Source: Rubripirellula sp.
GTDB taxonomy: Bacteria; Planctomycetota; Planctomycetia; Pirellulales; Pirellulaceae
Length of the DNA: 64,000 nucleotides
Reading direction: 5' to 3'
Assembly (NCBI GenBank): GCA_965216875.1
Contig: OZ244207.1
Location: 5,600,001 to 5,664,000 of the forward strand
Positions 17,018 to 44,680 of this stretch are shown in pieces. The notes under the pieces are model-generated. The model worked only from the letters and a program-made list of their open reading frames with translations. It made no database searches and was not told the DNA's origin. Each line of letters opens with the position of its first letter. The first letter of the stretch is position 1. A program made the position numbers and the translations under genes.

Positions 17018-17159
17018 TTGAAAACACAAATCCAATTGACGCTTGAATCGCAAGCGAGTGAATCTCGGTGTTTTTGCTGAGTCCTCGCAAACTACTTATT
17101 GACATCTAGCACACCATTCATCTTTGAGTTTTGGCACAGGACTCGTCTGGGGGACATCG

Positions 17160-23100: not shown

Positions 23101-23891
23101 ACAGCGCCTACGGCGAGCCAACCATCACCGATGCCGCCGGAGTCACACGCACATCCACCGCCGAAGGCAACCGCTACACCTACACCGGCCGTGAATGGGA
23201 CAACATCGCCGAACTCTTCCACTACCGAGCGAGGATGTACGACTCGGCGAGTGGCCGGTTCTGCTCCAGAGATCCGATTGGGTACTTTGACGCAAACAGC
23301 CTATATCAGTCGCGCATGTATTTGAATGCTCTTGATTCTCTGGGTTTGTGCTCGGTTGAATGCACACCATTTGCCAAAAAGGATGTGGCGGCAGTGCATT
23401 TTGGGATGCAAAGCTGGGATGTAGGAAATAATCCCGGTGCGGGAGATGACGCGGTGATTGATATTTGGACGATCGAGATTGCCCAAAAAATCCTGAACAT
23501 AATTGCAATACGTGGTGCTGGTTCGACTAAGAGCATTGATGACATCATCAAAGAGATTGTGGACGCTGGTGGCAATCCCTCTTCTAAGAATACGGTCGAT
23601 GCTATCGAACAGATATGGAGCAAGCGGCAAAAACTCGGAATCCGAAGACAATTCCAGGCTTTGTTCATCAAGGTGCGCGGAAAATGTTGCAGGCAAGGTA
23701 AATACCCTTGGTCGAGCAACTACTGGGATAAGTACGACTACTGGTATCGTTGTGATGCTGCCCAGAAAATCGACCTGACGCGTCCAGAAGATGTCGCTAA
23801 AAAGCTAGACCGCAACTTGCAACAATGCATTAAGAACGCAGAGGCTGCCTTCGATTGTAAGACACTGATGGGTAATGTGGCGAAAGGTTGA
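17160..23891 (+). CDS. Rhs/YD-repeat polymorphic toxin with N-terminal Sec signal peptide
   Basis: Signal MNPLRRFVIRLVVMVFAAVSICSYGFA|Q; many YD repeats; Rhs core YTGREWD...YRARMYD...GRFCSRDPIG...DSLGL; variable C-terminal domain. Confidence 0.93.
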   Translation: MNPLRRFVIRLVVMVFAAVSICSYGFAQNPPPPEMVWGNVNSEDATPSPIIRQPDMRTATANSAVNGCMNKACVSECPPPAGISDVSGWNPYDSGPFVSDWNPSGSGPLGRGGWNPSGSGPLGRGGWNPSGSGPLGRGGWNPSGSGPLGRGGWNPSGSGPLGRGGWNPSGSGPLGCGSGSCGSGGRSGGAGIPANQSPFYFSTITGGANGRPLRQGTINGMSMIEGFGLDYMHWADDIVPRIRGDIGVRRFHRPRFSACGSSFGPMVMSNWDLRLYFHLYYGGDTSVGYTQIYVRDPIAQTPYRLNHISYGTYNEGGHNLLAADKGKFVPQTAGTIKEAWVGPELPDSNTVWDYNPQASSINSSNFFLAHEDVRTATMTGWDGVVYEFELMKIPDQTAWEQVLDQQWLYMNGLPGYSQAAYYGSEIYNYVIQGRLTKITIPGNRSYTISYKSWTPMEIYDSWERVWQIDTITSETGQTLTYTYGAQTVAGQWAVSNIANSNGKSASYTYTNDYLSQVTRSDGTTSSFTNGFDSVANAASIEFDDPAAENGHRKKTILLSSSSAGTSGFYFAGSMNLIRSVVNAAGEVAYASIPVMNYSAPSGQGLSVFNYVGGGRMMRNVPAGGANLNATGAFWRWSSYMEGGWQMSVNNGAMEFTGDAESPIAVHESTGLWGTLGNLYPTTVDERGLTQTHEYDNGWLVRTNYSDGSFETWCRDGSGRVTRYRDRNGNVTKYAYHSSGALSLKEVGLTDHPSNVDVPPTQYGSGTPYDYCATNDVQTADHAVYQWTYNADGQLLASIDPLTNQTDYNYDAQDQLIEIKAPQVTGESGRATTTMTYHPSGKLKTMTDPVGTVIEYFYDGQDRLISTLYDDGTTDRTEYETGTNGFGLPAKTIDRLGVVTTYEYDAADRLIKKVAAAAQMDGATETPTPELASTSEWKYLEGTNDPIATRVDGRVTTYKYDYRGRRIETKVYSSAGVSKVVQKSKYINNQLFRSEDAFGRKTYYGYDANDGRLIRTVVGTVPEFEIPEEDPSVSNYDPNDAVLALTRDSQPNATYIITDSIYDESGKLVESIDPRNIATKYEYDDAGRQTAVIAAATTGVETRRETVYNIAGQVTEVRSPRYFDSSDTEGYQKASETWTYDERGRQSTHTVAPNSAIAATESFKYDLLGRQIEKTDFAGKLWKAHFEDCCGKVTGSENPLGHGAISRRDSLGRVIHQASLETYSDHVAALDNPVDAKTLREVTTRYDGRGRPVARTTWLVARGVVDATNPPIAGLDGVAATDGITQQYLYDEDLTDGVGLDSATGASVDQLGGGTYNVSLSAALAKLADTEANGGAGITFNADAIGSARVSINAEEEISFSISDAAGKSVMSGIIEPHDGANPNSLLSWNVTPDQATTNLAGYGTVVVSKSVNAFGKSNTQHSDAAGRTIQSIDALGKITSYTYDASGNLLSVRDPNNVGQDCTYDALGRGLTCTDTGGASTSSTYDDAGNKIVSTDAASNNTTYTFDARGRQIKQTDRLGGETEFDYTATGQLASLTDAEDQVTSYTYDDAGGKLTETYPDHIGGTPGQAGYGIVTFTLDATGRTLRKQDQLGDTVTYNYDLAGRLTSRDYRTVANSPSGTIADSDTFTYDAAGRMLTAASGRYTNTVTYTYDDAGRKATEALTIAGVTYTTTTAYNAAGQVTGYTYPDGTSVTRTYTDRGQLATIGVDSTTVDTRTYDDGGRMLTSVYNNGVTETRAYNSDNTLASIMHAGAAIGNYTYGWDSNKNKTSEAITGTMSGYGFTVGASGYDDEDRLVNWERDDSNLDQSWNLSLVGDWNSITENGSVQSRTHGPAHEILTVASQAITHDAKGNITSIPAVLRSGSDSLAMSWDFDNRMTGADVDNDGTDDVTYQFDALGRRVHSDDGSTATVFVQSGQQTFADYTSGTAATSPTYTYVYASYIDEPVYRDGSGGVRYYHRTQQYSITALTDSSGTIRERYAYSAYGEPTITDAAGVTRTSTAEGNRYTYTGREWDNIAELFHYRARMYDSASGRFCSRDPIGYFDANSLYQSRMYLNALDSLGLCSVECTPFAKKDVAAVHFGMQSWDVGNNPGAGDDAVIDIWTIEIAQKILNIIAIRGAGSTKSIDDIIKEIVDAGGNPSSKNTVDAIEQIWSKRQKLGIRRQFQALFIKVRGKCCRQGKYPWSSNYWDKYDYWYRCDAAQKIDLTRPEDVAKKLDRNLQQCIKNAEAAFDCKTLMGNVAKG
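17459..17683 (+). repeat. In-frame 39-bp tandem repeat (5 full copies plus 1 partial) encoding WNPSGSGPLGRGG
   Basis: Unit ctggaatccaagtggttcggggcc(a/g)cttggtcgaggtgg at 17459, 17498, 17537, 17576, 17615 and 17654 (partial); a degenerate 36-bp unit precedes it. Confidence 0.95.
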
Positions 23892-29949: not shown

Positions 29950-30846
29950 TTGGCAGGACGCGTTTTCGCTTCGAATCTATGGAAAACGGCTGCGGTTGCC
30001 GCTGCGCTGATGCTCGGTGGCTGCGGTTCCCTGATTCACCGTCATGACACGCACGCTGTGCCCTACACAACACAGCCACCACATGACTCCGTGGTGAATG
30101 AACAGGCGCGACTACTCAACAAACGTGGCCTTCATGCATTTGAGATTGGTAATCTTCTCAAGGCGGAGCAACTTTTCCGCGAGGCTCTCGAGGCCGACGT
30201 GAACTTTGGCCCAGCGCACAACAACCTTGGCCAAGTCTACCTGGCTCGGCACCAGCTCTATCTTGCAGCTTGGGAATTTGAGTACGCAGCCAATCTCATG
30301 CCCGAACTCGTCGAGCCGATCATTAACCAAGGGTTGGCATACGAAACAGGCGAACGGCTCGAACGAGCTGCGGAGATCTATCAAGACGCATACTCGCGAC
30401 TGCCCAGTCATCCGGTCGCGATAGCAAGCTTGGTTCGCTGCAAGGTCAAACTCGATGCGGATCCTTATGAGATTGCTTTCTTGCTGGACGAGCTGATCAT
30501 GCACGACGGGCGTCGTGAATGGGTCGAGTGGGCAAAGGAGTTGCGAGCAACCAAATACCGTAACGATTGCTTGGAATGCGGCGAGCACCAGTCGCATCAG
30601 CAGTTCGACGACCAGTCATCGGATCGTCAACCAAGCTTAGGGCGAGATGAGTTCGATCGTGAATCGGATTCACTCAGACGCGAGTTGTTGCCGATGACCG
30701 AGCCAGTGCCCGGCCGGCCAGATGACGAGTCAACAGAGAGTACGAAGCCGAGCGTGCTTCTGCCTGGGGATGGAACTGCAGACCGGTCGCTCGGGTTCGA
30801 GCTGCCACCGATCCCAAATGATGTAACCCAAGGGCCACGCGAATGA
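29950..30846 (+). CDS. TPR lipoprotein (PilF/PilW pilotin-like)
   Basis: Lipobox LMLGGC; TPR motifs AHNNLGQVY and NQGLAYE; directly upstream of the secretin. Confidence 0.75.
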   Translation: MAGRVFASNLWKTAAVAAALMLGGCGSLIHRHDTHAVPYTTQPPHDSVVNEQARLLNKRGLHAFEIGNLLKAEQLFREALEADVNFGPAHNNLGQVYLARHQLYLAAWEFEYAANLMPELVEPIINQGLAYETGERLERAAEIYQDAYSRLPSHPVAIASLVRCKVKLDADPYEIAFLLDELIMHDGRREWVEWAKELRATKYRNDCLECGEHQSHQQFDDQSSDRQPSLGRDEFDRESDSLRRELLPMTEPVPGRPDDESTESTKPSVLLPGDGTADRSLGFELPPIPNDVTQGPRE

Positions 30847-33191
30847 CCAGAAACAAAATGATCGCGCTGAGATTCGCGGTGTGCCTTGCCTCCATGTTGG
30901 CTGTTGCATTCGGTGGAAGGCTAGCCGCTCAGCCAGTGCCGCCGCAAAAGACAATGCTGCTGCAAGGTGAAGTACCGCTCTCGGGCTTCATCGACTTCAT
31001 GTCAAAACAGCTTGGTGTGCGTATTCTGTATGACGAATCCTTAAGTAAGAAGAACGTCAACCTGATCGCCCCCGATCCAATCCCTGCCGAAAGCCTTCCC
31101 GAGGTTCTGCAGACGGTGTTGATCAATGAGGGGTTGGTGATCACCGACACGGATCGCCAAGGATTCAAGCGGATCACAACTAATGCTCAGATACCGATCG
31201 TGGCTCGTCCGAGCAATGCGTCCGAGGACTTGACCAAAGTTGACGCCGCGGTGCCCCTCACACGCGTGTTTGTGTTGGGCGAAAGTCAGCCGACGAAACT
31301 CGCCGAGCTGATCAAACCTTTTCTTACGGGAACAGGTGCAACGGCGATTCCGCTCGATCGCAGCGGATTGTTGGTTGTGACCGATGTGGCAAGGAACATT
31401 CGCCGCGCCGAACAACTCATACGCGTGCTTGATGGTGAATCGACTCAGGTCGAAATCGAGTTCGTCCCTGCCAGAAATGTTGCGGTCAACGACTTGGCGG
31501 ACCAACTTCGCGAATTGTTGTTGGCAAGAAAGAAGGCGATGGGCACGGGCGAGGACGCTGCGGGTGGACTTGAGGTATCAATCGACGCGCGAACCAACAG
31601 CCTGATTTTAATTGGGACGACGTTCGAAATCACACAGGCACAGCGTCTGCTAAGTCAGCTCGACAAATCGCTCGACACACAACAACGTGCCTTTACCCTT
31701 CGTTTTTTCTCTGCAGAAAAGCTTGATTCGATCGTTCGAGACATTGTCGACGGCCAGCCACTGAAACCTCCGTACCAATCGCGCGTCGAAGGAAACGTGT
31801 TGATCGTCAGTTCGACACCGGAAGTGCTGCAGTTGGTCGACCGAACTCAGAGGCAACTCGATACGCGAGAAGCACCCGAAGGCCAGAGTCCGGTTCGCTT
31901 CTACAAGATCAAGAACGTTCCTGCCCAGGAACTCGTCGAGACGATTCGAGGCATTGGCGGCCGAGTCACCGCGACACCGCAACGACAAACACTTCCGCCA
32001 CGACGCAGAACAACGAACGACATCGCTGTGCCCGGTCCAAACCTGCCAGCACTTCAGTATCCTGGCGAGGCCCAGCCGATCCAGATTCCCCCGACCCCAC
32101 CAGCGGTCCGCGAGCCGATCAATCCAAGCGACCCACTTGCCGCTAGGCTGCCAGCGCTAGCGGACGAAATCACAACGCCGATGGGAGAAGCGTTTGCGCA
32201 GGGCTTTCCACAGGACATCGTCGCGGAGGCTGAGGCCACTGCACCTGAATCTCAAAGCCTGCTCGGTACTGCTGAAGTGACGGTTGACGTGCACACGAAC
32301 ACAATCATTGTCGTCGCACCTCCAGATGTTCAGCGCGTCTACGCGACATTGATTGAGCGGCTCGATCAGCGCCGGCCACAAGTTTTGATCGAAGCTCAGA
32401 TCGTGATCATTGACACGTCTGATGACTACACCCTTGGTGTCGAAGTCTCAGGTGGCGACCGTAGCGGCGTAAAGCGATTGTTCAGCTTTTCGAGCTACGG
32501 CCTGAGTACGGTTGATCCGACGTCGGGGGCACTAAGCATCATTCCTGGTGTTGGATTCAACGGAACTTTGGTTGACCCTGACACTGCGGATGTGGTTGTC
32601 AGAGCGCTAACGACTCATCGCCGAGCACGCGTGCTTTCAGCACCAAGAATTTTGGTAAACGACAACGCGGAAGGGCAATTGACGAGCGTCTTGGAAGTTC
32701 CCTTCACAAGTGTCAATGCGTCACAAACGGTTGCAACCACGAGCTTTGCAGGTTTCGCGGAGGCGGGGACAACAATCACGGCGACGCCAACGATTAGTGA
32801 AGACAACTATTTGCAGCTCGACTACACCGTGACGCTCAACTCGTTCACCGGTGTGGGATCTGACGGTGTGCCCCCTCCACGCCAAACCAATGAGGTTCGA
32901 AGCCGGGTTACAGTTCCCGATGGCTATACCGTGATCGTTGGTGGCCTCACCTCAAAGAACGAATCGTACGAAATCGATTCGATCCCATTTCTTGAGCTGA
33001 TCCCTTTGATCAAGGATCTCAGCAGCCTACAACGCGACAATTGGCAGGAAACGTCATTGTTCGTTTTCCTCAAGCCGATCATCTTGCGTGAGGACAAGTT
33101 CAAAGACCTACGCTTCCTCTCAGATTCCAGCCTGCAAAAAGCCGAGCGCCCCGGCAATTTCCCTGCGAACGAACCACTTACGATCGAGTAA
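30843..33191 (+). CDS. gspD: T2SS outer-membrane secretin
   Basis: Signal peptide, N-domains, RRPQVLIEAQIV, APRILVNDN, VPDGYTVIVGGL and IPFLELIPLI. Confidence 0.93.
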   Translation: MTRNKMIALRFAVCLASMLAVAFGGRLAAQPVPPQKTMLLQGEVPLSGFIDFMSKQLGVRILYDESLSKKNVNLIAPDPIPAESLPEVLQTVLINEGLVITDTDRQGFKRITTNAQIPIVARPSNASEDLTKVDAAVPLTRVFVLGESQPTKLAELIKPFLTGTGATAIPLDRSGLLVVTDVARNIRRAEQLIRVLDGESTQVEIEFVPARNVAVNDLADQLRELLLARKKAMGTGEDAAGGLEVSIDARTNSLILIGTTFEITQAQRLLSQLDKSLDTQQRAFTLRFFSAEKLDSIVRDIVDGQPLKPPYQSRVEGNVLIVSSTPEVLQLVDRTQRQLDTREAPEGQSPVRFYKIKNVPAQELVETIRGIGGRVTATPQRQTLPPRRRTTNDIAVPGPNLPALQYPGEAQPIQIPPTPPAVREPINPSDPLAARLPALADEITTPMGEAFAQGFPQDIVAEAEATAPESQSLLGTAEVTVDVHTNTIIVVAPPDVQRVYATLIERLDQRRPQVLIEAQIVIIDTSDDYTLGVEVSGGDRSGVKRLFSFSSYGLSTVDPTSGALSIIPGVGFNGTLVDPDTADVVVRALTTHRRARVLSAPRILVNDNAEGQLTSVLEVPFTSVNASQTVATTSFAGFAEAGTTITATPTISEDNYLQLDYTVTLNSFTGVGSDGVPPPRQTNEVRSRVTVPDGYTVIVGGLTSKNESYEIDSIPFLELIPLIKDLSSLQRDNWQETSLFVFLKPIILREDKFKDLRFLSDSSLQKAERPGNFPANEPLTIE

Positions 33192-33247
33192 GCGGTCAGC
33201 GCCGTGACCTCTGTTGTCAACCCTCAACACTTTGAGGGCGAGTTTGA

Positions 33248-33275
33248 TTGCACTATAGGAAATCGCCCCTACACT
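33248..33275 (+). promoter_or_regulatory. Putative sigma70 promoter of the element core operon
   Basis: TTGCAC-16 nt-TACACT. Confidence 0.4.
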
Positions 33276-33307
33276 GAGGGTAAGGGTTGCGTTTTCGCTC
33301 CCTTCTT

Positions 33308-33360
33308 GAGGCCGGCTAGGGTAGCTCCCGAACAGCGACCGTTCATCGCCCGCCGGCTCT
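33308..33360 (+). ncRNA. Putative Y-shaped structured leader RNA
   Basis: Outer stem gccggc/gccggc enclosing hairpins ggg-tagct-ccc and gcga-ccgttca-tcgc. Confidence 0.3.
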
Positions 33361-33397
33361 CTTTCTAAGGAAGGAACACGTCGGGGAGGAACGACCG

Positions 33398-34297
33398 ATG
33401 CAAGAAGTCAGTAGTGCCCTTGAGGTAGTCAAGAATCTGTGCAGCCATGCTGGTGATATTACGGCAACAACCCGGCTAGTTGTAGCGAGATGGAATGCCG
33501 GCGATCGCGAGGCGGGACTTACGCAACAGCTCACCGAGGCAGTGCTGCATGACATTAACAATCTCCGGATTGCAGCGGAGCATTTAGATGTGCTCGATTC
33601 CTTGTTGATAAAGGATGGAACGTCTTCTCCCATTGCTGACAAGCTATTCGCCTTGTCCCAAGGCTCAGAAAGAAAGACTGCTCGGTATCGCAACACTCCT
33701 GTCGAAACTTCGCTGGGGTTGCTCGCGCGCCAGGTGCGGGACTTTCTGTTTCGAATTGGAAGCAACGTTGATAGCGTTATCGGGGAGTATTTTATCGAGA
33801 CCAGTTTCTTCGCCGATCCAACGTACTGGCTACGGATCCGGAATCAACTTGAGGTAGAGCTTCGGCGGGCGGGCTGCAAACTTCACGGTCCACTTGCCAA
33901 CGCGTTAGATCTTGCGCTGGTTATACCGTCTGAACTAGCAGCTGATTCGTTGAGTGAGCTCTTTGACTTCATTGAGTCGACTGGGTCAGCCTCTGAACAA
34001 GACGTCCCTACTAAGAAACCGATGACGCCTGCAGAAATAAAAGGCAAGGCATATGCGCTGATTGCCAATGGTGAACGCTACTCTTCCTGTCGAGAACTCG
34101 CGAATGCCGTGGGATGCGCTCGTAGGGCAAAAGCCATCCAAGAAGTATGGCGACAGTGTGGCGAGCGAATAACCAATCCACGTGCAGTGGACCTCCATTG
34201 CAATATTCAAGACCCCTCAGACCAGCTTAACCAACTAATCGACGAACAGGCTTGCGACGACGCCTCTACGGGCAAGCCACAACGCCGCCGAGTTTGA
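33398..34297 (+). CDS. Hypothetical protein with C-terminal HTH-like motif (candidate element regulator)
   Basis: ggagga RBS; YSSCRELANAVGCAR HTH-like segment. Confidence 0.6.
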   Translation: MQEVSSALEVVKNLCSHAGDITATTRLVVARWNAGDREAGLTQQLTEAVLHDINNLRIAAEHLDVLDSLLIKDGTSSPIADKLFALSQGSERKTARYRNTPVETSLGLLARQVRDFLFRIGSNVDSVIGEYFIETSFFADPTYWLRIRNQLEVELRRAGCKLHGPLANALDLALVIPSELAADSLSELFDFIESTGSASEQDVPTKKPMTPAEIKGKAYALIANGERYSSCRELANAVGCARRAKAIQEVWRQCGERITNPRAVDLHCNIQDPSDQLNQLIDEQACDDASTGKPQRRRV

Positions 34298-34443
34298 GCA
34301 TCCTTGCTTAGTGGCGCGCCCGGGCACGCCCACTAAGCAAGAATCTTATCCCGTGTTTTTCGGACGGCAGAGCATTTCGCTGGGCCGTGCGTGCCCATCT
34401 CGCCGGATTGTGAAGGCAGGAGTTATTCACAAGAGGCGATTCA

Positions 34444-34653
34444 ATGCAAACTAAGGTCCCGGTCCAGCTGCTGACCGCCCGTGTCATCGCGGAGCGGATC
34501 GGCGTGCCGATACATCGCGTCCGGCGAATTCTGGAAACTCGGCAAGACATCAAGCCTGCGGCAATGGCGGGCAGGACGCGGTTGTACAACGCAGCAGCGT
34601 TGGCTCGTGTGCGATACGAACTTTCCGTTATCGACGCGAGGCGGAGCAGATGA
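34444..34653 (+). CDS. Small MerR/excisionase-like winged-HTH protein
   Basis: LLTARVIAERIGVPIHRVRRIL...AGRTRLY. Confidence 0.7.
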   Translation: MQTKVPVQLLTARVIAERIGVPIHRVRRILETRQDIKPAAMAGRTRLYNAAALARVRYELSVIDARRSR

Positions 34654-34829
34654 GCGACAAGTTGACGAAACCACAAGCAGATGCGCTCGCAGTTCTGCTC
34701 CTTACATTAATGGCACCGGAACTGCCGAAGTCGAAGGAAGTGGATGACCCGGCACTTTCCCCGACACATTCAATTGCCTTACCGACCAGGTGCAACGCCA
34801 ATTCCAACCAGCATGGAGGTAACGCATGA
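34650..34829 (+). CDS. 59-aa hypothetical protein (absent from the ORF track)
   Basis: Open frame MSDKLTKPQ...GGNA with ATGA overlaps at both ends. Confidence 0.5.
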   Translation: MSDKLTKPQADALAVLLLTLMAPELPKSKEVDDPALSPTHSIALPTRCNANSNQHGGNA

Positions 34830-35638
34830 GAGGGTTTGCAAAACTCGAAAGATCGATTCTTGAGTCGTGTGTCGCTGACTCTGACGAGCTGCTAGGCCTT
34901 TACACCCGACTGCTACTCACGGCCAATTGGAAACCGCGGACCTTTAAAGGGATTCGAATCGAGCCAGGCCAGATGGTGCTATCCGACCGGTCACTGCGTG
35001 ATCGGCTTTATGGTGGCGCGGATGAGGCACCTTGCATCAATACGGTCAAGAAACGACTGGCCATGCTCGCATCGCTAGGTGTGATTAGAGTTGAGACCAT
35101 CAAACGACATCGGATTGTGTCGATCGCGTCAAGTATTGGCGCGGAGGGTGCGTCAAGCTTTGGCGCATGGCCCCCAGTCACGCCAGATTCTGACGCGATC
35201 GATGGCGCACAACTTGGTGCGAACTTTGGCGCAGAAAGAAGAAGAGAAAGAAAAGAGAAGAATGGAGAAGATACTTCCGTCAATGTCGAGCTGTCAGGCC
35301 GGTTCAAAGATGTCTTTGACGGTTGGAACGCTAGAGCTCAGGTAGTAGGCGATCCGTCACGAATGCCCTTGGTTCGCTCATTGAGCAAAGACCGACAGAC
35401 AAAGCTAAAGACGCGCCTAAGCGAGCAGACGTTCCGGGAGAACTGGCGACGTGCGATCGCCATGCTTCCGATACCAGCCAAGCGGGGATTCGATTGGTCA
35501 CCCAAATTTGATTGGCTCATCCAGAACGAGACCAACATTTTGAAGTTGGTCGAGGGCAACTATCACTCAGCAGACCCTCACGCTCGTGCTGGCGTCGACT
35601 TCGATCCGGAATACGGTGACTACGGGAAGGGTTTTTGA
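34826..35638 (+). CDS. Phage-type replication initiator (lambda O/replisome-organizer-like)
   Basis: N-terminal LYTRLLLTANWK...PGQMVLS winged helix; C-terminal FDWLIQNETNILKLVEGNY; coupled to a DnaC-like gene. Confidence 0.7.
   Translation: MRGFAKLERSILESCVADSDELLGLYTRLLLTANWKPRTFKGIRIEPGQMVLSDRSLRDRLYGGADEAPCINTVKKRLAMLASLGVIRVETIKRHRIVSIASSIGAEGASSFGAWPPVTPDSDAIDGAQLGANFGAERRRERKEKNGEDTSVNVELSGRFKDVFDGWNARAQVVGDPSRMPLVRSLSKDRQTKLKTRLSEQTFRENWRRAIAMLPIPAKRGFDWSPKFDWLIQNETNILKLVEGNYHSADPHARAGVDFDPEYGDYGKGF
35126..35262 (+). repeat. Iteron-like repeats plus purine tract inside the initiator gene (putative origin)
   Basis: gcgtcaag(ta/ct)ttggcgc at 35126 and 35150; tg(g/a)(c/t)gc at 35191, 35203, 35215 and 35227 (12-bp period); A/G-only tract 35233-35262. 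Confidence 0.55.
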
Positions 35639-36249
35639 TGATCACAGCTGCCGAAACCTGCCTTGACTATCTAGACCGGAAAGTTGGGGAACGGTACCGC
35701 AACTGCACGATTGACGGATTCGAACTCGTTCATCCTTCGGTCGAGCATGCCAAAGCACTCTGCCGGAACTACGTCACTAGCTTTCGGAGTCACTTCGCTG
35801 ACGGACGGGGCCTTGTCTTTATTGGCCCGAAGGGAACGGGAAAGGATCACCTAATGATTGCGGTCATGCGAGCAATTATTCGAGGCTACGACATTCAACA
35901 GCCAGGCCGCGTTCGCTATGAGGACGGAATGAAGTTCTATCGTCGATGCAGAGATACATTCAAATGCGACGTGCCAGAAGAAACCATTATCGAGCCGCTT
36001 TATTTCCCACACTTGCTCGGCCTTTCTGATCCCATTCCTCCGAGTGGTGAACTGTCCGAGTACGAGCAGAAAGTTCTGTTCGCACTTGTCGACCAAAGAT
36101 ACCGTCATTGCAGGCCAACCGCCGCAACCATCAACGTCCGCGAACGCGATGAGCTTGACCGCCGCATGGGAAGCCAAATCGCTGACCGCCTTTGCGATAG
36201 AGCAATTGTCGTGAAGTGCTTTTGGAAGTCCCACAGGAACGTACAGTGA
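35635..36249 (+). CDS. DnaC/IstB-like AAA+ helicase loader
   Basis: RYRNCTIDGF, Walker A GPKGTGKD, LVDQRY...TIN and GSQIADRL. Confidence 0.85.
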   Translation: MMITAAETCLDYLDRKVGERYRNCTIDGFELVHPSVEHAKALCRNYVTSFRSHFADGRGLVFIGPKGTGKDHLMIAVMRAIIRGYDIQQPGRVRYEDGMKFYRRCRDTFKCDVPEETIIEPLYFPHLLGLSDPIPPSGELSEYEQKVLFALVDQRYRHCRPTAATINVRERDELDRRMGSQIADRLCDRAIVVKCFWKSHRNVQ

Positions 36250-36356
36250 CTCCACTGCGGGTCCTTTCTGAGGGCCAATGTAAACGGTGTGCCACCCCCC
36301 TCGACGCAAACAATGACACAGTGCGTGCGTGTCCGCCAAACTGACAGGAGCCTAAC

Positions 36357-36578
36357 GTGCGAAAGATCAACACGGATGGATTGAAGATCGTTGTCGTCCC
36401 CAGGGCGAGATGCCCTGAGTGTGGAGGGCATGCCTTAAAGACCGTTCGATCCGTCAGATCTCAAGACATGTCCGCGACACGTTACACAGCTTGCAAGTCC
36501 TGCGATGCGAGGTTCATCGTGATCGTCGATCCGTCAATTGGTCCAGAATTTGGACGAATCGAGATGGACATTTCGTAG
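36357..36578 (+). CDS. Ogr/Delta-like zinc-finger transcription activator
   Basis: CPECG...TVRS...RYTACKSCDARF; caggag RBS. Confidence 0.65.
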   Translation: MRKINTDGLKIVVVPRARCPECGGHALKTVRSVRSQDMSATRYTACKSCDARFIVIVDPSIGPEFGRIEMDIS

Positions 36579-36611
36579 TATTCACTAACTTGCTTCACGG
36601 AGTGAATAGAC

Positions 36612-36824
36612 ATGCCAACTTTAGACGTTATCGCCATCGGCCGACTGTCCGGCGAATTGCAGACACCTGTGCAACGGTTACGAGAGATCGTGACTGAGTT
36701 ACGTATCGAACCAACTGCGATCATCAACAATATCGAACACTTCGATCGCATCGATGCGGAACGAATCGCCATGCACATTCGAAGCACCCATCCCCGTTCG
36801 GGTCCTTCCGAGACATTGGCGTAG
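36612..36824 (+). CDS. Second small HTH protein, similar in pattern to 34444-34653
   Basis: IAIGRLSGELQTPVQRLREIV...IEPTAIINNIEHF. Confidence 0.55.
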   Translation: MPTLDVIAIGRLSGELQTPVQRLREIVTELRIEPTAIINNIEHFDRIDAERIAMHIRSTHPRSGPSETLA

Positions 36825-37026
36825 CTCTCAGAGATTTACGCCCTCGACCGATCCAGACACAATCCGTCCGGCATGCCTGTTCATTTCGGCAGCGCGTCCT
36901 CCTGGAGGGGCCTACCCCTGTCGCGGGTTCCACTCCGAACACAAAACTCGCACGCAGGATTTTCCTGAGGGCACCACCACCACCACATTCACCCAGCCCC
37001 AGGATTTGGAAAACAAGGAAACGACC

Positions 37027-37734
37027 GTGCTCTACTTCATTGAAGGCATCAAAGCGACAAGCAAGGACGTGCTGGAGCAGCATGGTCTTGATCACTTGGT
37101 TGGTAATCAAGCGGGCGGCCGCGAATCGGGCACTGGCCCTGGTGGGAAACCTGGCTGTTTAGTCGTCGATCAATCCCGATTCAAGCGGATCCAGTTTTCT
37201 CCTGACCAGCAAACTTGGGAGCCACGGTTCGGTTATCCCGGCACTTGGGTTGGCATGTGGAACGACAGCCCACCTGGCCCGGAAGAATTGGCGAGTGAAA
37301 AGCAACTTGATGGCCCGGTCGTTCGGTTGCTCGATGGGAACCTCTGGCAGATTCCGCTGTTGCGGGAATGGTCTTTGTTTGAGGGCGATGTGGTCTATGA
37401 GTGCTGTCTGCCGAGGGTCTTTATGCAATGTCAAGAAACGGGGAGATTGAAACCTGGGGATGTTGTGCGGCAGTATCGGCAACTGTGGGACGACTCGGTC
37501 ACCGTTACTGAAGCCATGTTGGGTGGTGGACGCAGCGACAATGATCCTGAGTTCGATAGCCGGTTTTTGGATCAGTTCTTGGGCTCGCTCTTGGCCGCCA
37601 ACTATCAGGTTTCGCTAACCGAAATCAGCTTGCTTCAGCTCATCGATGAGGGTCTTTCTGGCGAAGTGATTCGAGCATCCATTGGCTGGCAAAGCGTTCT
37701 TGATTTGTCCGCTGAACTTCAATGCCAAAACTAA
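37027..37734 (+). CDS. Hypothetical phage protein, candidate tail-assembly chaperone
   Basis: GTG start with aagga RBS; sits immediately upstream of the tape-measure-like gene (function is a positional inference). Confidence 0.5.
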   Translation: MLYFIEGIKATSKDVLEQHGLDHLVGNQAGGRESGTGPGGKPGCLVVDQSRFKRIQFSPDQQTWEPRFGYPGTWVGMWNDSPPGPEELASEKQLDGPVVRLLDGNLWQIPLLREWSLFEGDVVYECCLPRVFMQCQETGRLKPGDVVRQYRQLWDDSVTVTEAMLGGGRSDNDPEFDSRFLDQFLGSLLAANYQVSLTEISLLQLIDEGLSGEVIRASIGWQSVLDLSAELQCQN

Positions 37735-37747
37735 GGATGGTACAGCC

Positions 37748-39832
37748 GTGGCAACAACCGTCGTTGAAATGACTGGCGAAGAAAGGCGATTGATTCAGTC
37801 GCTCCAGAAGGTCATCGCAAAGGAAGCTGAACACGCGAACCAACTAGAACGCACCGGGCGGGCTGGCGGAAAGGCTGGCGATGGCATTGACCGAGGGATG
37901 AAGAGGGCCGAGAAGGCGTCCGTACTGTCGCTGAAAGGAATCCAGCGAGCCGGAACCGATTCATTTAGGAAGCTCAGGACCTCCGCTGCTAGTGACCTCG
38001 CATCTGTCGCAGGCGGGTTCACATCGCTTGAAGCAGGGCTGGGTAAGTTTGTTGAGCTTCAAAACGCGGCAATCGCAAAGAACAGAGAGTTGTTCTCTGG
38101 TCTGCAATCGACAGAAGGAGGTGATCGACGGTTGGTCCAGATCGCTGAGAATGCTCAAGACTTCAGGCAATTGCGTGGGCGGGCAGATGAAATAGCTGGC
38201 AAGTTTGGGATCGAACGTACTGACGCGCGCGGCCTAGTGTTCAGTGCTCGCTCAGAGAACTTTGAAGACACGCTTGAGTTCATCGCCAAGAATGCCCAAG
38301 TCATAGATACAACGGCCCAGAGCACGGTTGCGGGCCAACTGCCGCAGCTGTTCAAAGGCAGTGGACTAACGGGGACCCAGTTCATCAATGCTACGTTGGC
38401 TGCTGCAAAGGACAGCCGAGCCGACTTCGAAGCGATTGCAAGAGTTGTCCCAATCGCTGCGCAAGGTGGTTCAGTCGCAGGTGCAAAACCTGAAGAGATC
38501 CTTGCGGCAACGTCCGTGCTGCCATCAAGGACTACTTCACCCGAAGTCGCGGCCAACCTAATCAAAGCCTTTGCCACGAAAGTTGGGTTGGATACTGGGA
38601 CTACTGCCGAGGATCGCAAAGCGTTCGAAAAAAAAGAAGCGGACCGCCTGAGCTCGGCACAACTCAGGTTGCGAAGCCTAACCGAACGACGGGACGACCT
38701 GCAGGAAGATCTTGCGGACGCTCCACGAAGCCGCAGGGCGGATCTTGAGAAGGCTTTGGCAAGGGCGAACCGAGCGATTGACGAGTTTGATCGGTCGCAG
38801 CTCGACAAGAGATCCTTTGCGGCAAGAGAGTCACTGTCTGGCGTTGGCCTGCTTGGTGCTGTAAGAAAACTCGATTCACTGCCGGAAGCGCTTCAGCGTG
38901 ACTTCCTCGGTGAAAGCCAGGAGCTTAACCAGGGATTCATTCTGCTAAAGAAGAATCTTAATACGATCGAACAGCGGGCTGCAACAATCAGCGAGCAGTT
39001 TGGTCTTACCGGAACCGGTCGATCGATCACTGCAAAGCGGCGAGCGATCACATTAAGGAATCCGGAGCTCGCCACCCTTCTTGAAGAACGCAAAAGCCGA
39101 ATTGCTCTCGAGATCGAACGTGACGACCGGGCGTTACTTGAAGGATCCAGCCAAGCAAAAGCTAACCGAGCCCTGGCGACCGCCGAACGCGACGGCTCAT
39201 CCGCTCTTCGTATTGCTGCAGCGGAGTCGTTTGGCGAGACAGCGACGGGATTAGGCTTTTCTCGTGAGAATGCGATCACGCTGGTAGCTGGCAACGACCT
39301 TGGACAACTCGAGCGGGACTTGGCGTTCTCGTCACGCTCTAGCCCTGGCCAGAAGCTTGGTCCGCTCGTCAACGCGGTAAAAGAACTTCGGCGAGCTCGT
39401 GGCGTTGACCCAACGGCACTTGTCCCCCGCGATGCGGCCGCCGGCTACCTGCGAAACGTCACGGGTCGTGAAATCTTCGCCAACAACATCACTGATACCG
39501 AGAGGCTTGGACTCACAAACCAAATTGTCGCGCAGGCAAAGAAAACAACCGGTTTTGGCCGAAGTGCGACCATCGGAGTTCTCGATGCATTGGGGCCGCT
39601 TGGCAACTTGGCACTTGGATCAAAACAACTGGCTGTCAATGAGGGCCTGGACGCCGCAAAGGAGATCCGAGCAGGCCTAGAGGCACAGGCGGCTGCCACT
39701 CGTGAACAGACCGAAGTGTTGAGGCAAATGCAGACGGATTCACAGGCGACCGCTTCAGCGACGCAAGCAACGGCAGCGAACACGCAACCAAGCCAATCAT
39801 CATTTGGTGACGCACAAAGGGCAGGAAGATGA
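37748..39832 (+). CDS. Phage tail tape-measure-like protein
   Basis: About 690 aa, Ala/Gly-rich and helical; N-terminus VVEMTGEERRL; TMP-like core (AAAKDSRADFEAIARVVP...GAKPEEILAATSVL...AANLIKA); GTG start with aagga RBS. Confidence 0.6.
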   Translation: MATTVVEMTGEERRLIQSLQKVIAKEAEHANQLERTGRAGGKAGDGIDRGMKRAEKASVLSLKGIQRAGTDSFRKLRTSAASDLASVAGGFTSLEAGLGKFVELQNAAIAKNRELFSGLQSTEGGDRRLVQIAENAQDFRQLRGRADEIAGKFGIERTDARGLVFSARSENFEDTLEFIAKNAQVIDTTAQSTVAGQLPQLFKGSGLTGTQFINATLAAAKDSRADFEAIARVVPIAAQGGSVAGAKPEEILAATSVLPSRTTSPEVAANLIKAFATKVGLDTGTTAEDRKAFEKKEADRLSSAQLRLRSLTERRDDLQEDLADAPRSRRADLEKALARANRAIDEFDRSQLDKRSFAARESLSGVGLLGAVRKLDSLPEALQRDFLGESQELNQGFILLKKNLNTIEQRAATISEQFGLTGTGRSITAKRRAITLRNPELATLLEERKSRIALEIERDDRALLEGSSQAKANRALATAERDGSSALRIAAAESFGETATGLGFSRENAITLVAGNDLGQLERDLAFSSRSSPGQKLGPLVNAVKELRRARGVDPTALVPRDAAAGYLRNVTGREIFANNITDTERLGLTNQIVAQAKKTTGFGRSATIGVLDALGPLGNLALGSKQLAVNEGLDAAKEIRAGLEAQAAATREQTEVLRQMQTDSQATASATQATAANTQPSQSSFGDAQRAGR

Positions 39833-40062
39833 AAATCGAGAACTTCAACGATTTCGCTACAGCGTTTGAAATCATGGGTGACAACTTTGCCGAATCAGCC
39901 GAGGGGTTTGAGACGATGCAGGCAAAACTTGCTGGGCTACCAGATGAGTGGAAGCCGTTGCTTGAACAAGTACGCGTCATGAAGATCACTTCCAGACTGC
40001 TGCGGACACAAGCGAACACAGCAGCGGCGATTGCTCAAGAGATCGCAGACGGTGTTGGATAG
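39829..40062 (+). CDS. Small helical hypothetical protein
   Basis: ATGA overlap with the TMP-like gene. Confidence 0.6.
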   Translation: MKIENFNDFATAFEIMGDNFAESAEGFETMQAKLAGLPDEWKPLLEQVRVMKITSRLLRTQANTAAAIAQEIADGVG

Positions 40063-40072
40063 CGGAGCTAAC

Positions 40073-40519
40073 GGTGGTCAATTCGGCCACCCATGGAGTC
40101 CATTTGGTGTGCAGCATGCTGCACACCGTCGAAGTGCCAAGGTGGACGATCCGCATTCGACGGCTGGTCAAATTAGCCACCCGCAAGGGCGTGTGAGTTA
40201 CACGCCCATAAGACTTGAAAACACCAGCAAACTGAAAGTCCAGGGTAGATGATTTAGCTACCCGCGATCGATCTGTCCAGAATTCTGGACAGTTCGGGTT
40301 GGTCGAATTAGCCACCCTGACCTTACATAAGAATTTGTGGAGGGTCGGCACGTATGACCTTACTCAAGAATTTGAGGAAGGTTCGGAATAGAGCTTGCGC
40401 AAGTGTTTGCGTAAGGCTGTGGTACAAATTATTGCACCACAGCCCGACCCTAAACTGTGCGCAATTGCGCACAGTTTCGCCGCCCGCACAGGGCTTCGTG
40501 TCAAATTCTTGAAACACAG
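40073..40519. repeat. Array of about 13 closely packed 18-28 bp palindromes of several sequence classes
   Basis: Perfect palindromes at 40106-40127, 40273-40292 and 40452-40477, plus about ten imperfect ones (listed in findings). Confidence 0.85.
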
Positions 40520-40844
40520 CGCCTTGCAACCGAACAGACCGAGCCGAACTTGACGACGAGCTCCCGTGTCGTGACAATGCGAGAGCTGTCGTGAAGGACT
40601 AATAACCGACACGACTTGACCGCTGGATTCAAAACCTCCGGCGGTGACAAAGCCAACTACTACCATTCTGACGATTTAGAAATGACAACGCCGCACGTTT
40701 TGTGGACCACCGGAAGCAATGAGCCTGCGCAGGCAGGGGAGCAACCGACCCGACCCGGGGTAGTAGCCGGGTTATTAGCAGGACGTGCGGCGTTGTCGTG
40801 CGCTGGCGGAATCGATCCGTTGGCGGAAAGGTTGAACCAGACCC

Positions 40845-41324
40845 ATGAAGTCTCGTTCGAACGAACAAAAGCGTTTGGCAGTTGAGCGATCGGCCAAGGT
40901 AGCTTACGAGGGTCTTTTGACGGCCCGCGAGTTGTACGCTGGCGGCGACGCAAAGGCAGGTTTCTATCTTGCTCGGTCGTTGTGGCTCGTTGCCGTGATG
41001 GACTCAGCGACACGATTCTCACCTAACACGAAATCACGCACGAGTCGGTGCGGGCTGATGGCGTTGTTTCATGGCAAACGAATCGACCAAGAGACCTTCG
41101 AGTATTGCTCAGCAATCGATGTGAAGGTCACGGGAGGTTGGGCAGTAGCTACAGACACGCCTAAAATCGTCGAAGCCGCAACCGCGTTGCTTGAAGCGAC
41201 CGAATCCAACAGTTGCCGCAAACGTCGATTGGCAGCGATTGAGAAGGCCAACGCTAAACCCGGCCGGATCCGTCAGCTGGCAACCGCTGCTTGTGGTTTG
41301 TTTGCCTTCGGAGGTGCGTCTTGA
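40845..41324 (+). CDS. Hypothetical protein
   Basis: 159-aa ORF overlapping the next start. Confidence 0.55.
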   Translation: MKSRSNEQKRLAVERSAKVAYEGLLTARELYAGGDAKAGFYLARSLWLVAVMDSATRFSPNTKSRTSRCGLMALFHGKRIDQETFEYCSAIDVKVTGGWAVATDTPKIVEAATALLEATESNSCRKRRLAAIEKANAKPGRIRQLATAACGLFAFGGAS

Positions 41325-41509
41325 AAAGCGACCTAGACAATCCCCGAGTGCGATTCCTCCCAACACCTGAAGAGATCAGGCAGCGTGCGAGTGAAGTCCG
41401 CTCGAATTGGTCCGCAAGGATCCGCGAGGAAAGACGCGTCAAGGCTTACGACTCACCTTGGAGCGTTCCGGCCTTCGTCCTTGAAGAGAACGAGCTACGC
41501 AGCCTGTAG
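41321..41509 (+). CDS. Small hypothetical phage-like protein
   Basis: TTG start with ggaggtg RBS; PTPEEIRQRASEVRSNWS. Confidence 0.55.
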   Translation: MKSDLDNPRVRFLPTPEEIRQRASEVRSNWSARIREERRVKAYDSPWSVPAFVLEENELRSL

Positions 41510-41524
41510 CGACTGACAAACAGC

Positions 41525-41552
41525 AGACCGGGAATGGATGCCCGGTCTTTTT
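41525..41552 (+). terminator. Intrinsic terminator upstream of the integrase
   Basis: agaccggg/cccggtct stem plus T-tract. Confidence 0.55.
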
Positions 41553-41594
41553 GACCGAACGGAAACCACCTCATCACATGGAAGACAGATTCAC

Positions 41595-43307
41595 ATGGTC
41601 ACTACAGCAGTTGGCTACATTCGAATGTCAACGGACGACCAAGAGGCATCACCAGAACAACAGCGGGAAGCAGTAGCACAGTTCGCGACTGACAACGGCT
41701 ACAAAATCATTCGCTGGTATCAAGACCTTGGAATCAGTGGCGACAAGACAGAAAAGCGAATCGACTTTCAAAAGATGATTGCAGCTGGTTCGACTGGCGA
41801 GTTTGATGCGATCCTTTGCTGGGACCAAGACCGTTTCGGGCGTTTCGACATGCTTGAGGCTGGCCGCTGGATCCACCCACTAAGGCAAGCTGGTGTCCAC
41901 TTGGCTACGGTCACCGATGGACCGATCGACTGGACACAGATGGCCGGCAGGTTGGTTTACTCGGTCAAACAGGAAGGCAAACACCAGTTCTTGCGTGACC
42001 TTTCAAAAAACGTTTCCCGCGGGATGGACAAGCTTGCCGCCGAGGGCCGATGGGTCACAGGTGTTCCGCCGATCGGTTACGTGGTCGACGAAGACAGGCG
42101 TCTTCAATTAGGACCACATGAAGACGTGGCAATCGTGAAAGACATCTTCCGGAAGTACTTGGCCGGTGATTCCACCCGACAGATCTCGCAGTGGCTCTCG
42201 GACCGTGGCATCCTTAGCCCGAAAGGCAAGAAGTGGACGGCAACAGGAATATCAAACGTGTTGAAAAACGAGCGATACCTTGGCTACCTCGTCTACAACC
42301 AACGAACAAGCTCGAAGTACAAGGATGCTTCCAACCCGCAGGGCAGAATGAAGACGAAGCCACGCGAAGAATGGACGATCGTGCCCAACACTCACCCTGC
42401 CCTGGTGACTCAAGAAGACTTCGACGCAGTTCAAGAACTATTCCGAACCAACACACGGAAAACGGCACCAAACAGCGGCCGTAAGTACGCCCTTTCCGGT
42501 CTGCTTCGATGCGGTTGCTGTGGGTTCACGATGATGGGCGACAAGTCCAACGGTGTCCCGTCCTACACTTGCTATTCGTATCGGGAACGCCCCAACTCAT
42601 GCGAGCGGTACAACGTCCGAGAGGACCAAGGCCTCAAGGCCATTCTGCGGGAGCTACGAACACAGTGGTTTGACAAGTACTTCACAGAATCACACATCGA
42701 GCAAATCAAGTCAGCGATGCGGGACATGCTCAGCGGTGAGCGTGCAGACCTGGGCATCGTGAAAGGCCATCTGGCGAAGGTGGAGGGCCAGATTGAGCAG
42801 GCGAAGCGACGATTGGTCGAAGTACCCGCCGACATGGTTCGGCACGTTTCAGAGCGTCTCAGGGAGCTTGAGGATCAGCGTGATTCACTGCTGGTCCAGC
42901 TGCAGCAATCAAACACGCCCGTTGAAGAGCAAGTCTTGGCCGTAGAGGAGCGCATCAACAGCGCGATCGAGTGGCTCAATTCACTCGAGCAAATCGCTGA
43001 AACAAAGTACGACAGCGATAAGGTCAATCGGATGCTACGACAGTTCATCGACCGCGTTGAGCTCCACTTCAAACGCAAGCCAATCGGAAAGCTTAAGAAG
43101 TACCACCGTTGTGAACTTGTTGGCGGTGTTGTCTACTTCCGGTTGAATGGCCTGCAGTCCGTCTTTAGCAAATCCATGAAGTTGCAAACAGGGGACCGGA
43201 GATTTTGGACATGTACTTTTCGATTTGCGGTGGCGTGCAATTGCAATGCCGACGCGGGTCGCTTCGGTAGCCACACGGACAAGGATTCGCCGCTGCGATC
43301 AACATGA
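41595..43307 (+). CDS. Large serine recombinase (integrase)
   Basis: [10 protein letters not shown] catalytic Ser, WDQDRFGR, recombinase domain ([23 protein letters not shown]), Zn ribbon [11 protein letters not shown]...YTC...C and a coiled coil. Confidence 0.95.
43160..43215. other. Hybrid attachment site (attL/attR); crossover at about 43186-43190
   Basis: comM similarity ends at ...SKISGPL and continues FATSWIC* instead of the conserved LDRID. Confidence 0.75.
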
Positions 43308-44340
43308 AGTCCGATGGAAACGTTGTGCTGCGAAGCGCTCGTGAGATCGTGACCACGCCGTCTTCGAGTGGTTGACGCATCACTTCCAACGTCTTGCGAT
43401 TGAACTCGGGCAGTTCGTCCAGAAACAGAATCCCGTTGTGCGCCTTGGAGATCTCGCCTGGTGACGGCGGACTTCCGCCGCCCACCAAACCCGCGTCGCT
43501 GATTGTGTGATGAGGGCTGCGAAAGGGTCGTCGCGCAAGGAGCGGCTGGCCCGATGGAAGTTGGCCAAGCGCGCTATAGATCCGCGTGGTCTCGATCGAT
43601 TCCCCCGCACCCAACTGCGGCAACACCGTTGGCATCCGCTTGGCCAACATCGTTTTTCCACTGCCGGGTGGACCAATCATGAGAAGATTGTGGCGACCAG
43701 CTGCGGCCAACGCCATCGCGCGCTTGGCCGACTCTTGACCTTTGACGTCACCAAAGTCGACATCATAGATGCTGTATCTTTCGAACAACTTGTCGAGACG
43801 ACTGGGCGCGGGGGTGAGATCGACTTCGCCGGCAAAAAACGCGACCGCTTGCGCAAGACTATCGACCGCGATCACATCGATCCCCTCGACCACGGCCGCT
43901 TCACTTGCGTTTTCGCGCGGCACCACAAGGCCCGTGATCCCTTCGTCCTTTGCCGCTTCCATCGCGATGGAAAGAGCCCCTTTGACGGGACGCGTGTAAC
44001 CTTCCAGTGCCAACTCACCGACCACGGCGTATTGATCGAGCCGATCACTTTGCAGTTGACCACTGCCGGCAAGGATGCCAAGCGCGACTGGCAAATCGAA
44101 CGAAGGAGCCTGTTTGGGTAGGTCACCCGGGGCAAGATTGATGACGACGCGATCGTGCGGACGTATGAAACCGCTGTTGACGATCGCCCGTTCAACGCGA
44201 AAGGTGCTCTCCTTCACTGCCGCGTCGGGAAGCCCAACGAGGATGGTCTTTGGCATCGCGGCTACCGAGAGGTCGACTTCGACGTCGACCGGCATCGCTT
44301 CGATGCCAAGCAGCGTAAAGGTTTTCAACCGCGCAAGCAT
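43165..44340 (-). pseudogene. comM: YifB/ComM Mg-chelatase-like AAA+ helicase, 5' fragment interrupted by the island
   Basis: [21 protein letters not shown], Walker [26 protein letters not shown] and NPCPCG; truncated before the LLDR arginine finger. Confidence 0.92.
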
Positions 44341-44680
44341 GGCCCCTGCCCCACAAGAGATTGATTCCAATCGAAAAGTCACCCAATTCGATTCTGCCCG
44401 AATCCTGCCACCATTGGGTCTTCTCAAATCGTGACGTCATTCGAGTCGTCAATCAACCCTATTAGATAGGGATCGCCATCAAAGAGCGGGCATGGAATTG
44501 CGGTCGGCATCTGCCAGCAAGAGATTTCGGCGTTATCCAACGCCGAATCGCAAACGCAAAATGCACCCGAGCAGGTAAAGCTTGCTCGAGTGCATTTGTC
44601 TCGTTCAGAAGGATGTCTTGGCGACAAGCCTGTCTTTTGGTCAAGTCATCGCCAGGATGTTTGGTCGGTCCGCATGGGGA

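Follow-up and report, generated by a model that had tools for sequence, protein, structure and literature searches.

What could some 13 distinct mirror-symmetric DNA units, packed between a tape-measure gene and the recombinase end of a satellite-like island, be doing there? We addressed this question for positions 40072-40517 of a window, the whole stretch of 64,000 nucleotides from Rubripirellula sp. that was analysed (GCA_965216875.1, contig OZ244207.1, positions 5,600,001 to 5,664,000). Coordinates are those of the window unless the name of a genome (G) or locus (L) precedes them; G000 is the window's genome.

The host island

The island, about 43 kb long, interrupts comM. Its core runs from an int-alpA RNA motif through a small HTH gene, an O-like initiator, a DnaC-like loader, a C4 zinc finger, a probable tail chaperone and a tape-measure gene to the array, which three small ORFs and a large serine recombinase follow.

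33309..33374, plus strand: int-alpA RNA motif, start of the satellite core (39.2 bits, gathering threshold 35.8)
34826..36249, plus strand: O-like initiator and DnaC-like loader (PHROGs)
36357..36578, plus strand: C4 zinc-finger gene (zn73), probably a late activator; the dyad belonging to it lies at 36538-36558
37027..37734, plus strand: probable tail assembly chaperone, labelled only from its position between tail tube and tape-measure genes in related phages; no family match
37742..39832, plus strand: tape-measure protein (PhageMin_Tail E=2e-7, slightly below cut-off)
40550..40578, plus strand: sigma-70-like promoter match directly 3' of the array (9/12; weak, 1 found against 0.5 expected)
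40638..40803, plus strand: non-coding-looking block (blastn matches in L015, L235 and L246 at 68-72%; no Rfam match)
41538..43307, plus strand: large serine recombinase (domain and PHROGs matches)
43165..44427, minus strand: the 5' half of comM at the right-hand end of the island; the gene's other (3') half starts immediately left of the window, at G000:C1:5599917

As is characteristic of phage satellites, the element carries an integrase and replication genes of its own and lacks a full virion gene set; a tblastn search with 15 phage queries (terminase, portal, capsid, protease, tube, adaptor and zinc finger) gave no match in G000. Of 401 family genomes, 22 have the chaperone-like gene, which full phages and small elements alike can carry; named homologs are found in Rhodopirellula and Stieleria records. 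Satellites with a tape measure and a chaperone of their own are already known: PMC12987554 describes them for PLE, and PMC12822802 describes EPIPs, capsid-less satellites with tape-measure (and chaperone) genes. PLE with TMP and TAC and the EPIPs thus resemble our element as capsid-less satellites encoding a tape measure (and chaperone), but they differ from it in host, integrase and helper type, and the accessible parts of both papers describe no such operator bank.

The cargo of the island (window 1-33200, about 33 kb) includes a gene cluster of type II secretion or pilus-like character, its secretin at 30843-33191, and an RHS-repeat protein of 2255 aa (17124-23891) with a five-copy peptide repeat near its start. 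The conserved block downstream of the array is common to the window, L015, L235, L236 and L246, and we take it to be reminiscent of C4/CI-type immunity RNA leaders. G000:C1:601672-606739 is the site of a second small element, which carries a pair of serine recombinases and an ORF labelled terminase-like by eye.

An array of palindromes

The array comprises units of classes A, B and C and two singletons, with unit centres spaced 24.5-56 bp apart; none is assigned a strand.

40072..40092: A1, Bro-N-type intragenic palindrome variant, 17/20 to the Bro-N site consensus
40106..40127: B1, perfect TGT-N12-ACA palindrome, 0 exact 22-mer matches in viral contigs
40162..40182: A2, Bro-N-type variant, 17/20 to the consensus
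40187..40207: singleton S1, recovered by the dyad scorer
40243..40263: A3, class A copy that has diverged, its arms changed in a compensatory way (GGGTAG/CTACCC), 13/20
40273..40292: B2, perfect TGT-N12-ACA, 5 exact viral matches, 0 in the B3 gene family
40297..40317: A4, Bro-N-type variant, 16/20 to the consensus
40322..40344: C1, class C
40358..40381: C2, class C
40394..40415: C3, class C
40416..40443: singleton S2, recovered by the dyad scorer
40452..40477: B3, perfect palindrome, 18 bp identical to an intragenic site of an unnamed phage helix-turn-helix-type family
40498..40517: B4, imperfect TGT-N12-ACA

All 13 units that a sequence-only reading of the window had listed are present at the coordinates it gave, and the TGT-N12-ACA form it had claimed for class B holds for B1-B4, three of them perfect palindromes. 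The array also stands well above the shuffled background against which that reading had proposed to measure it. We counted eight non-overlapping dyads in 40061-40530 compared with 1.24±1.04 and a maximum of 5 in 500 dinucleotide shuffles, at a scorer cut-off of at least 6 that leaves A1, A2, A4, C1 and B4 below the cut or overlapping a neighbour. The summed dyad score was 74, compared with 8.0±6.7 and a maximum of 32.5 in the shuffles, and among 136 window tiles of 470 bp the two tiles of the array rank first and second for dyads. A possible 14th unit, decayed, lies at 40134-40158 between B1 and A2.

The same reading had seen no convincing gene here. In agreement with this, ORFs that cross the array score -0.04 to -0.44 bits per hexamer and most flanking genes +0.11 to +0.34, but the test is only suggestive of non-coding DNA because two short flanking ORFs (zn73, -0.17, and o72, -0.08) are likewise negative. 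An Rfam scan of 33000-43500 placed nothing on the array, and blastn searches with pieces of the array among cultured phages and plasmids returned chance-level matches only. The array is neither a CRISPR nor an integron, as had been stated: it contains no constant repeat and no Rfam CRISPR repeat. CRISPR arrays combine constant repeats with variable spacers and cas genes; among the homologous arrays described below, some do have constant linkers round variable palindromes. A parS/ParB centromere repeats a single site near parAB, whereas the units of this array differ and no ParA/ParB match was found among the 14 core ORFs. Host operators were considered as well and rejected, as the host genome holds no match to the units with fewer than two mismatches and the three best, when inspected, proved to be coding DNA.

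We propose, at a probability of roughly 0.55, that the array is a selected non-coding bank of operators from other mobile elements, for the self-binding proteins of many possible helpers, and thereby a putative decoy or docking platform.

Sources of the palindromes

A first class A pattern matched 0 viral contigs. The pattern built from A1 and one unit of L245 matched 25; 21 of these matches fall within Bro-N antirepressor-type genes, in frame and at a single position, and all tested source genes (7/7) reach the Pfam cut-off for Bro-N (PF02498). Against the Bro-N consensus, itself partly seeded by A1, A1 and A2 score 17, A4 16 and A3 13 of 20, and a score of 17/20 is reached at only 3 positions of the 8.26-Mb genome, two of them within the array. 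Class A likely derives from the Bro-N family; this is not certain because the units are imperfect (13-17/20) and because another frame yields a peptide resembling the site of P0160, a ParB-type relative. Class A thus matches a palindrome inside Bro-N genes, but the window holds the sites only, outside any Bro-N gene. An intragenic binding site is reportedly known for HK022 Roi. A class A-like hairpin with a T-run directly follows a capsid gene in L042 (2740-2775); this A1-like candidate remained a single case and was dropped.

The central 18 bp of B3 match 20 viral contigs exactly. Seven of these matches fall within a single gene family, in frame and at a constant position, where they encode the peptide NVRNCAQ or VCAIAH between 'AYQLI' and 'NEAQARPL'; 11 stand in mini-arrays of 2-3 units between phage head-tail genes (five were inspected, and the remainder share their flanks), one in a dyad cluster elsewhere and one in a primase gene. 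In L280, L284, L285, L294 and L295, 2-3 different palindromes, one of them B3, stand in a row between head-tail genes.

The B3 source family is large, with 19,700 clusters at E<=0.001, and has no Pfam name: among its 150 best members, HTH_ParB occurs in 4, Dam in 6 and MT-A70 in 1, and DUF3102 and PF01672 are found among its look-alike clusters. Foldseek matched the structure model (pLDDT 78.9) weakly to the DNA-binding domains of Noc, Spo0J/ParB and SopB (E 0.09-1.1), with Raf1 ranked above them. The 12-residue site window is palindrome-compatible in 63% of the 150 best members, compared with 3-18% at 22 other windows, and the site peptides vary widely; therefore, it is the symmetry that is conserved rather than the peptide. 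The frequency of B3's own peptide in this set is circular, as the profile was seeded with it. The TGT-N12-ACA shape is the intragenic palindrome of this unnamed family of helix-turn-helix type. The member in G000 itself (G000:C1:1232329-1232763), which belongs to another integrated element, has an imperfect TGT-N12-ACA at the site that matches no array unit, and the member in the closest relative, G016, has no palindrome there; both count against the operator-bank reading. So does the rarity of a methyltransferase domain, found in only 7/150 members, whereas prophage ParB-fold proteins are often fused to methyltransferases (PMC12704722). A tblastn search with a protein of the family gave no match among cultured phages.

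Borrelia ParZ (PMC9712426) offers a parallel, being a possibly phage-derived DNA-binding protein that binds within its own coding region and spreads over ~8 kb; unlike our array, it is one cognate protein-site pair and comes with no palindrome array. No direct link of the B3 family to ParZ emerged: PF01672 occurs in one Atlas cluster only (16% of members), and 0/150 members match it.

The sequence-only reading had suggested a collection of sites for several dimeric proteins and a search of each palindrome against phages. The former is borne out in that the sources of two unit classes are phage DNA-binding gene families unrelated to each other. The latter succeeded for B3 and class A, but viral-contig and cultured phage/plasmid searches found no source genes for B1, B4, S1, S2 and class C. 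None of the exact viral matches of B2 falls in the B3 or Bro-N families, and class C scores weakly (top 0.2-1% of genome positions) with an 'ENLP'-type unit profile from other arrays. That only class A, with its four units, and B3 could be traced counts against the operator-bank reading.

Recurrence in related elements

An alignment of the zinc finger matched 39 of 291 family genomes, and a subset of 48 loci was fetched from the matches before any search for arrays. At least five distinct strong dyads within 700 bp were found in four of the 48 (L244, L245, L251 and L254, from three genomes) and in the window (6), and in none of the 82 host tiles of 20 kb. Arrays of a looser kind can be made out in L017, L191, L243, L260 and L269. 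Most array-bearing relatives have an integrase and a primase or helicase, and two have a capsid-type gene; several arrays adjoin tRNA-like ends (by eye). In the comparison of homologous islands that had been proposed, the architecture is kept while units are gained and lost, and the units of the recurring arrays differ from those of the window. An array behind the tape-measure gene was not seen in most loci with a tape-measure or chaperone gene, L017 being the exception. In L244:6500-7600, L245:5700-6700, L251:14100-15100, L260:4700-5600 and L269:12400-13223, the palindromes vary and the linkers between them are nearly constant, the reverse of a CRISPR-like layout, and three G024 elements share some units.

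The palindromes of L244, L245, L260 and L269 still lie within open gene fragments, which are repeated and gene-like in L244, L245 and L269. The L260 fragment scores as a B3-family member (E=1.5e-5) and has a TGT-N12-ACA site. Other array fragments are presumably 'ParB-like', 'MT-A70-type' and 'DUF3102-like'; tblastn of the L245 fragment against cultured phages gave no match and did not confirm one of these labels. In G016 (L235/L236), the zinc finger, the gene after it and the block downstream of the array are present, and the array position holds a gene-like fragment with one or two palindromes and no dense array, which counts against the operator-bank reading.

Such fragments could also mean that the palindromes are neutral relics. 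Bro-N- and ParB-type genes would be repeatedly gained and lost at one hot spot, and their palindromes, kept and multiplied by hairpin-driven recombination or repair, would have no function today. The long open fragments that still flank units in L244, L245, L260 and L269, the fragment-only state of G016 and the appearance of class A and class C as decayed duplicates all fit this explanation. So does the failure of 44 of the 48 zinc-finger loci to pass the array test, which at the same time counts against an operator bank. However, three units of the window are perfect although their flanks are gone, at least two unrelated source families are represented among the units, and the B3 unit is kept in the intergenic mini-arrays of 11 phage contigs. 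We therefore regard neutral relics as the main, though unlikely, alternative to a selected operator bank.

The zinc finger and its dyads

The element's C4 zinc finger leads to another explanation, by which the array would hold sites for the Ogr-like late activators of several helpers. Ogr/Delta proteins have the motif CX2CX22CX4C and act at late-promoter sites of the form TGT-N12-ACA, as set out in PMC3931495. The likeness to these P2 Ogr/P4 Delta sites is in the outer triplets and spacing of class B, with TGT-N12-ACA in B1-B4, and in a C4 zinc finger with a downstream dyad. The differences are that the symmetry of class B extends over the whole unit and that B3 is a palindrome from the coding sequence of a different family. 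The element's finger had been called Ogr-like. A C4 zinc finger is indeed encoded, but the resemblance is weak: zn73 has the motif CX2CX23CX2C, without the CX4C spacing, and misses the Ogr_Delta cut-off (E=0.025, 15 bits against 26.3), and among 23 relatives 10 match weakly (best E=6.6e-6). A late promoter just downstream of each site was not seen, the one weak promoter match standing after the last unit only.

A dyad lies near the stop codon of 44 of 71 distinct zinc-finger genes, picked automatically and without a shuffled control. One inserted base separates B2 from the dyad of the element itself and from the L124 dyad; B2 alone stays a plausible zinc-finger site. However, the centre of these dyads is most often 7 bp (17/44) and seldom 8 bp (4/44), and that of class B is 8 bp. 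With dyad centres that differ, and with class A and B3 tracing to coding palindromes of other families, Ogr/Delta sites give way as the main explanation, and we consider it improbable that the array serves such activators.

In related phages and satellites, a dyad and, beyond it, promoter-like sequence come after the C4 zinc-finger gene. Such genes (36357-36578 and 71 related ones) are widespread in planctomycete-type phages and satellites, with the variable dyad and the promoter-like sequence at their 3' side, ahead of a portal operon or a small HTH gene. Together with their dyads, they probably form an Ogr-like late-activation system with element-specific sites. In some phages (L067-L071, gene before the head-tail adaptor), another small gene replaces the zinc finger, followed by short direct repeats in L068, L069 and L070.

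Cassettes or hairpins as improbable alternatives

The array could also be a cassette store for changing specificity, whose units are recombined into a cognate gene and alter protein and site together. The units equal variable coding segments of their source families, and repeated flanks in some homologous arrays could guide recombination; but no B3-family gene was found in the island and no Bro-N match among the 14 core ORFs, the window units have no homology arms, and C1 and C3 contain stops in the most plausible frame, which makes such a store very improbable. Equally remote is a hairpin-array RNA or single-strand origin, for the RNA fold (z=-8.1) speaks in its favour but is explained by the palindromes alone, loops are absent from three units, neither an Rfam match nor a terminator-like site was found, and the units trace to double-strand dyads in coding DNA.

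How an operator bank could work

Our comparisons show that several phage DNA-binding gene families carry an intragenic palindrome whose arms vary between members, and that two unit classes of the array are copies of such palindromes from unrelated genes, in banks that recur with changing content. ParZ binds its own gene (PMC9712426), and by analogy with it, and given the dyad form of the sites, each family protein most likely binds its own palindrome. The satellite would have captured pieces of such genes, a step that the homologous arrays display; the flanking codons would then have been lost and the palindromes kept close-packed. Whenever a helper or competitor with a matching protein becomes active, this protein may also dock on the copies carried by the replicating satellite. 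The most likely benefit would be titration or mimicry, in which the multicopy satellite absorbs the regulators or shares in what they do for the genomes that encode them, such as spreading, or methylation by fused methyltransferases. Sensing through a promoter beside the array appears less likely because homologous arrays often stand at the element's end.

A related conflict, between ICP1 Odn and the PLE iterons, is likewise decided by a DNA-binding domain and a semi-palindromic site common to phage and satellite (PMC8263062). There, the phage copies the satellite's protein, whereas the satellite of the window appears to copy the sites of many phages instead.

More tentatively, it is possible that phages tag their own genomes with a protein-palindrome pair held in one gene, and that satellites, like some phages, build up and renew a collection of tags from other elements. 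Through it, the proteins of many helpers would recognise, protect or modify one genome, or be disarmed by it: an acquired operator memory, and a DNA-level counterpart of a spacer array.

Significance

The array is real and apparently undescribed: the full-text literature searched, which largely leaves out subscription journals, yielded no description of such arrays. This bank brings several source families together in a satellite host, recurs in a group of satellites and draws on a second source family that has no name. Few phage proteins of unclear function are as common as those of the Bro-N antirepressor type and the orphan ParB-like ones. For both, the array indicates likely DNA targets, the palindromes in their own genes, and it suggests that satellites find such targets worth collecting. 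Matched protein-site pairs make this question directly testable. If true, an operator bank would let a satellite broaden the range of its helpers, or dampen their regulation, without the use of a protein of its own.
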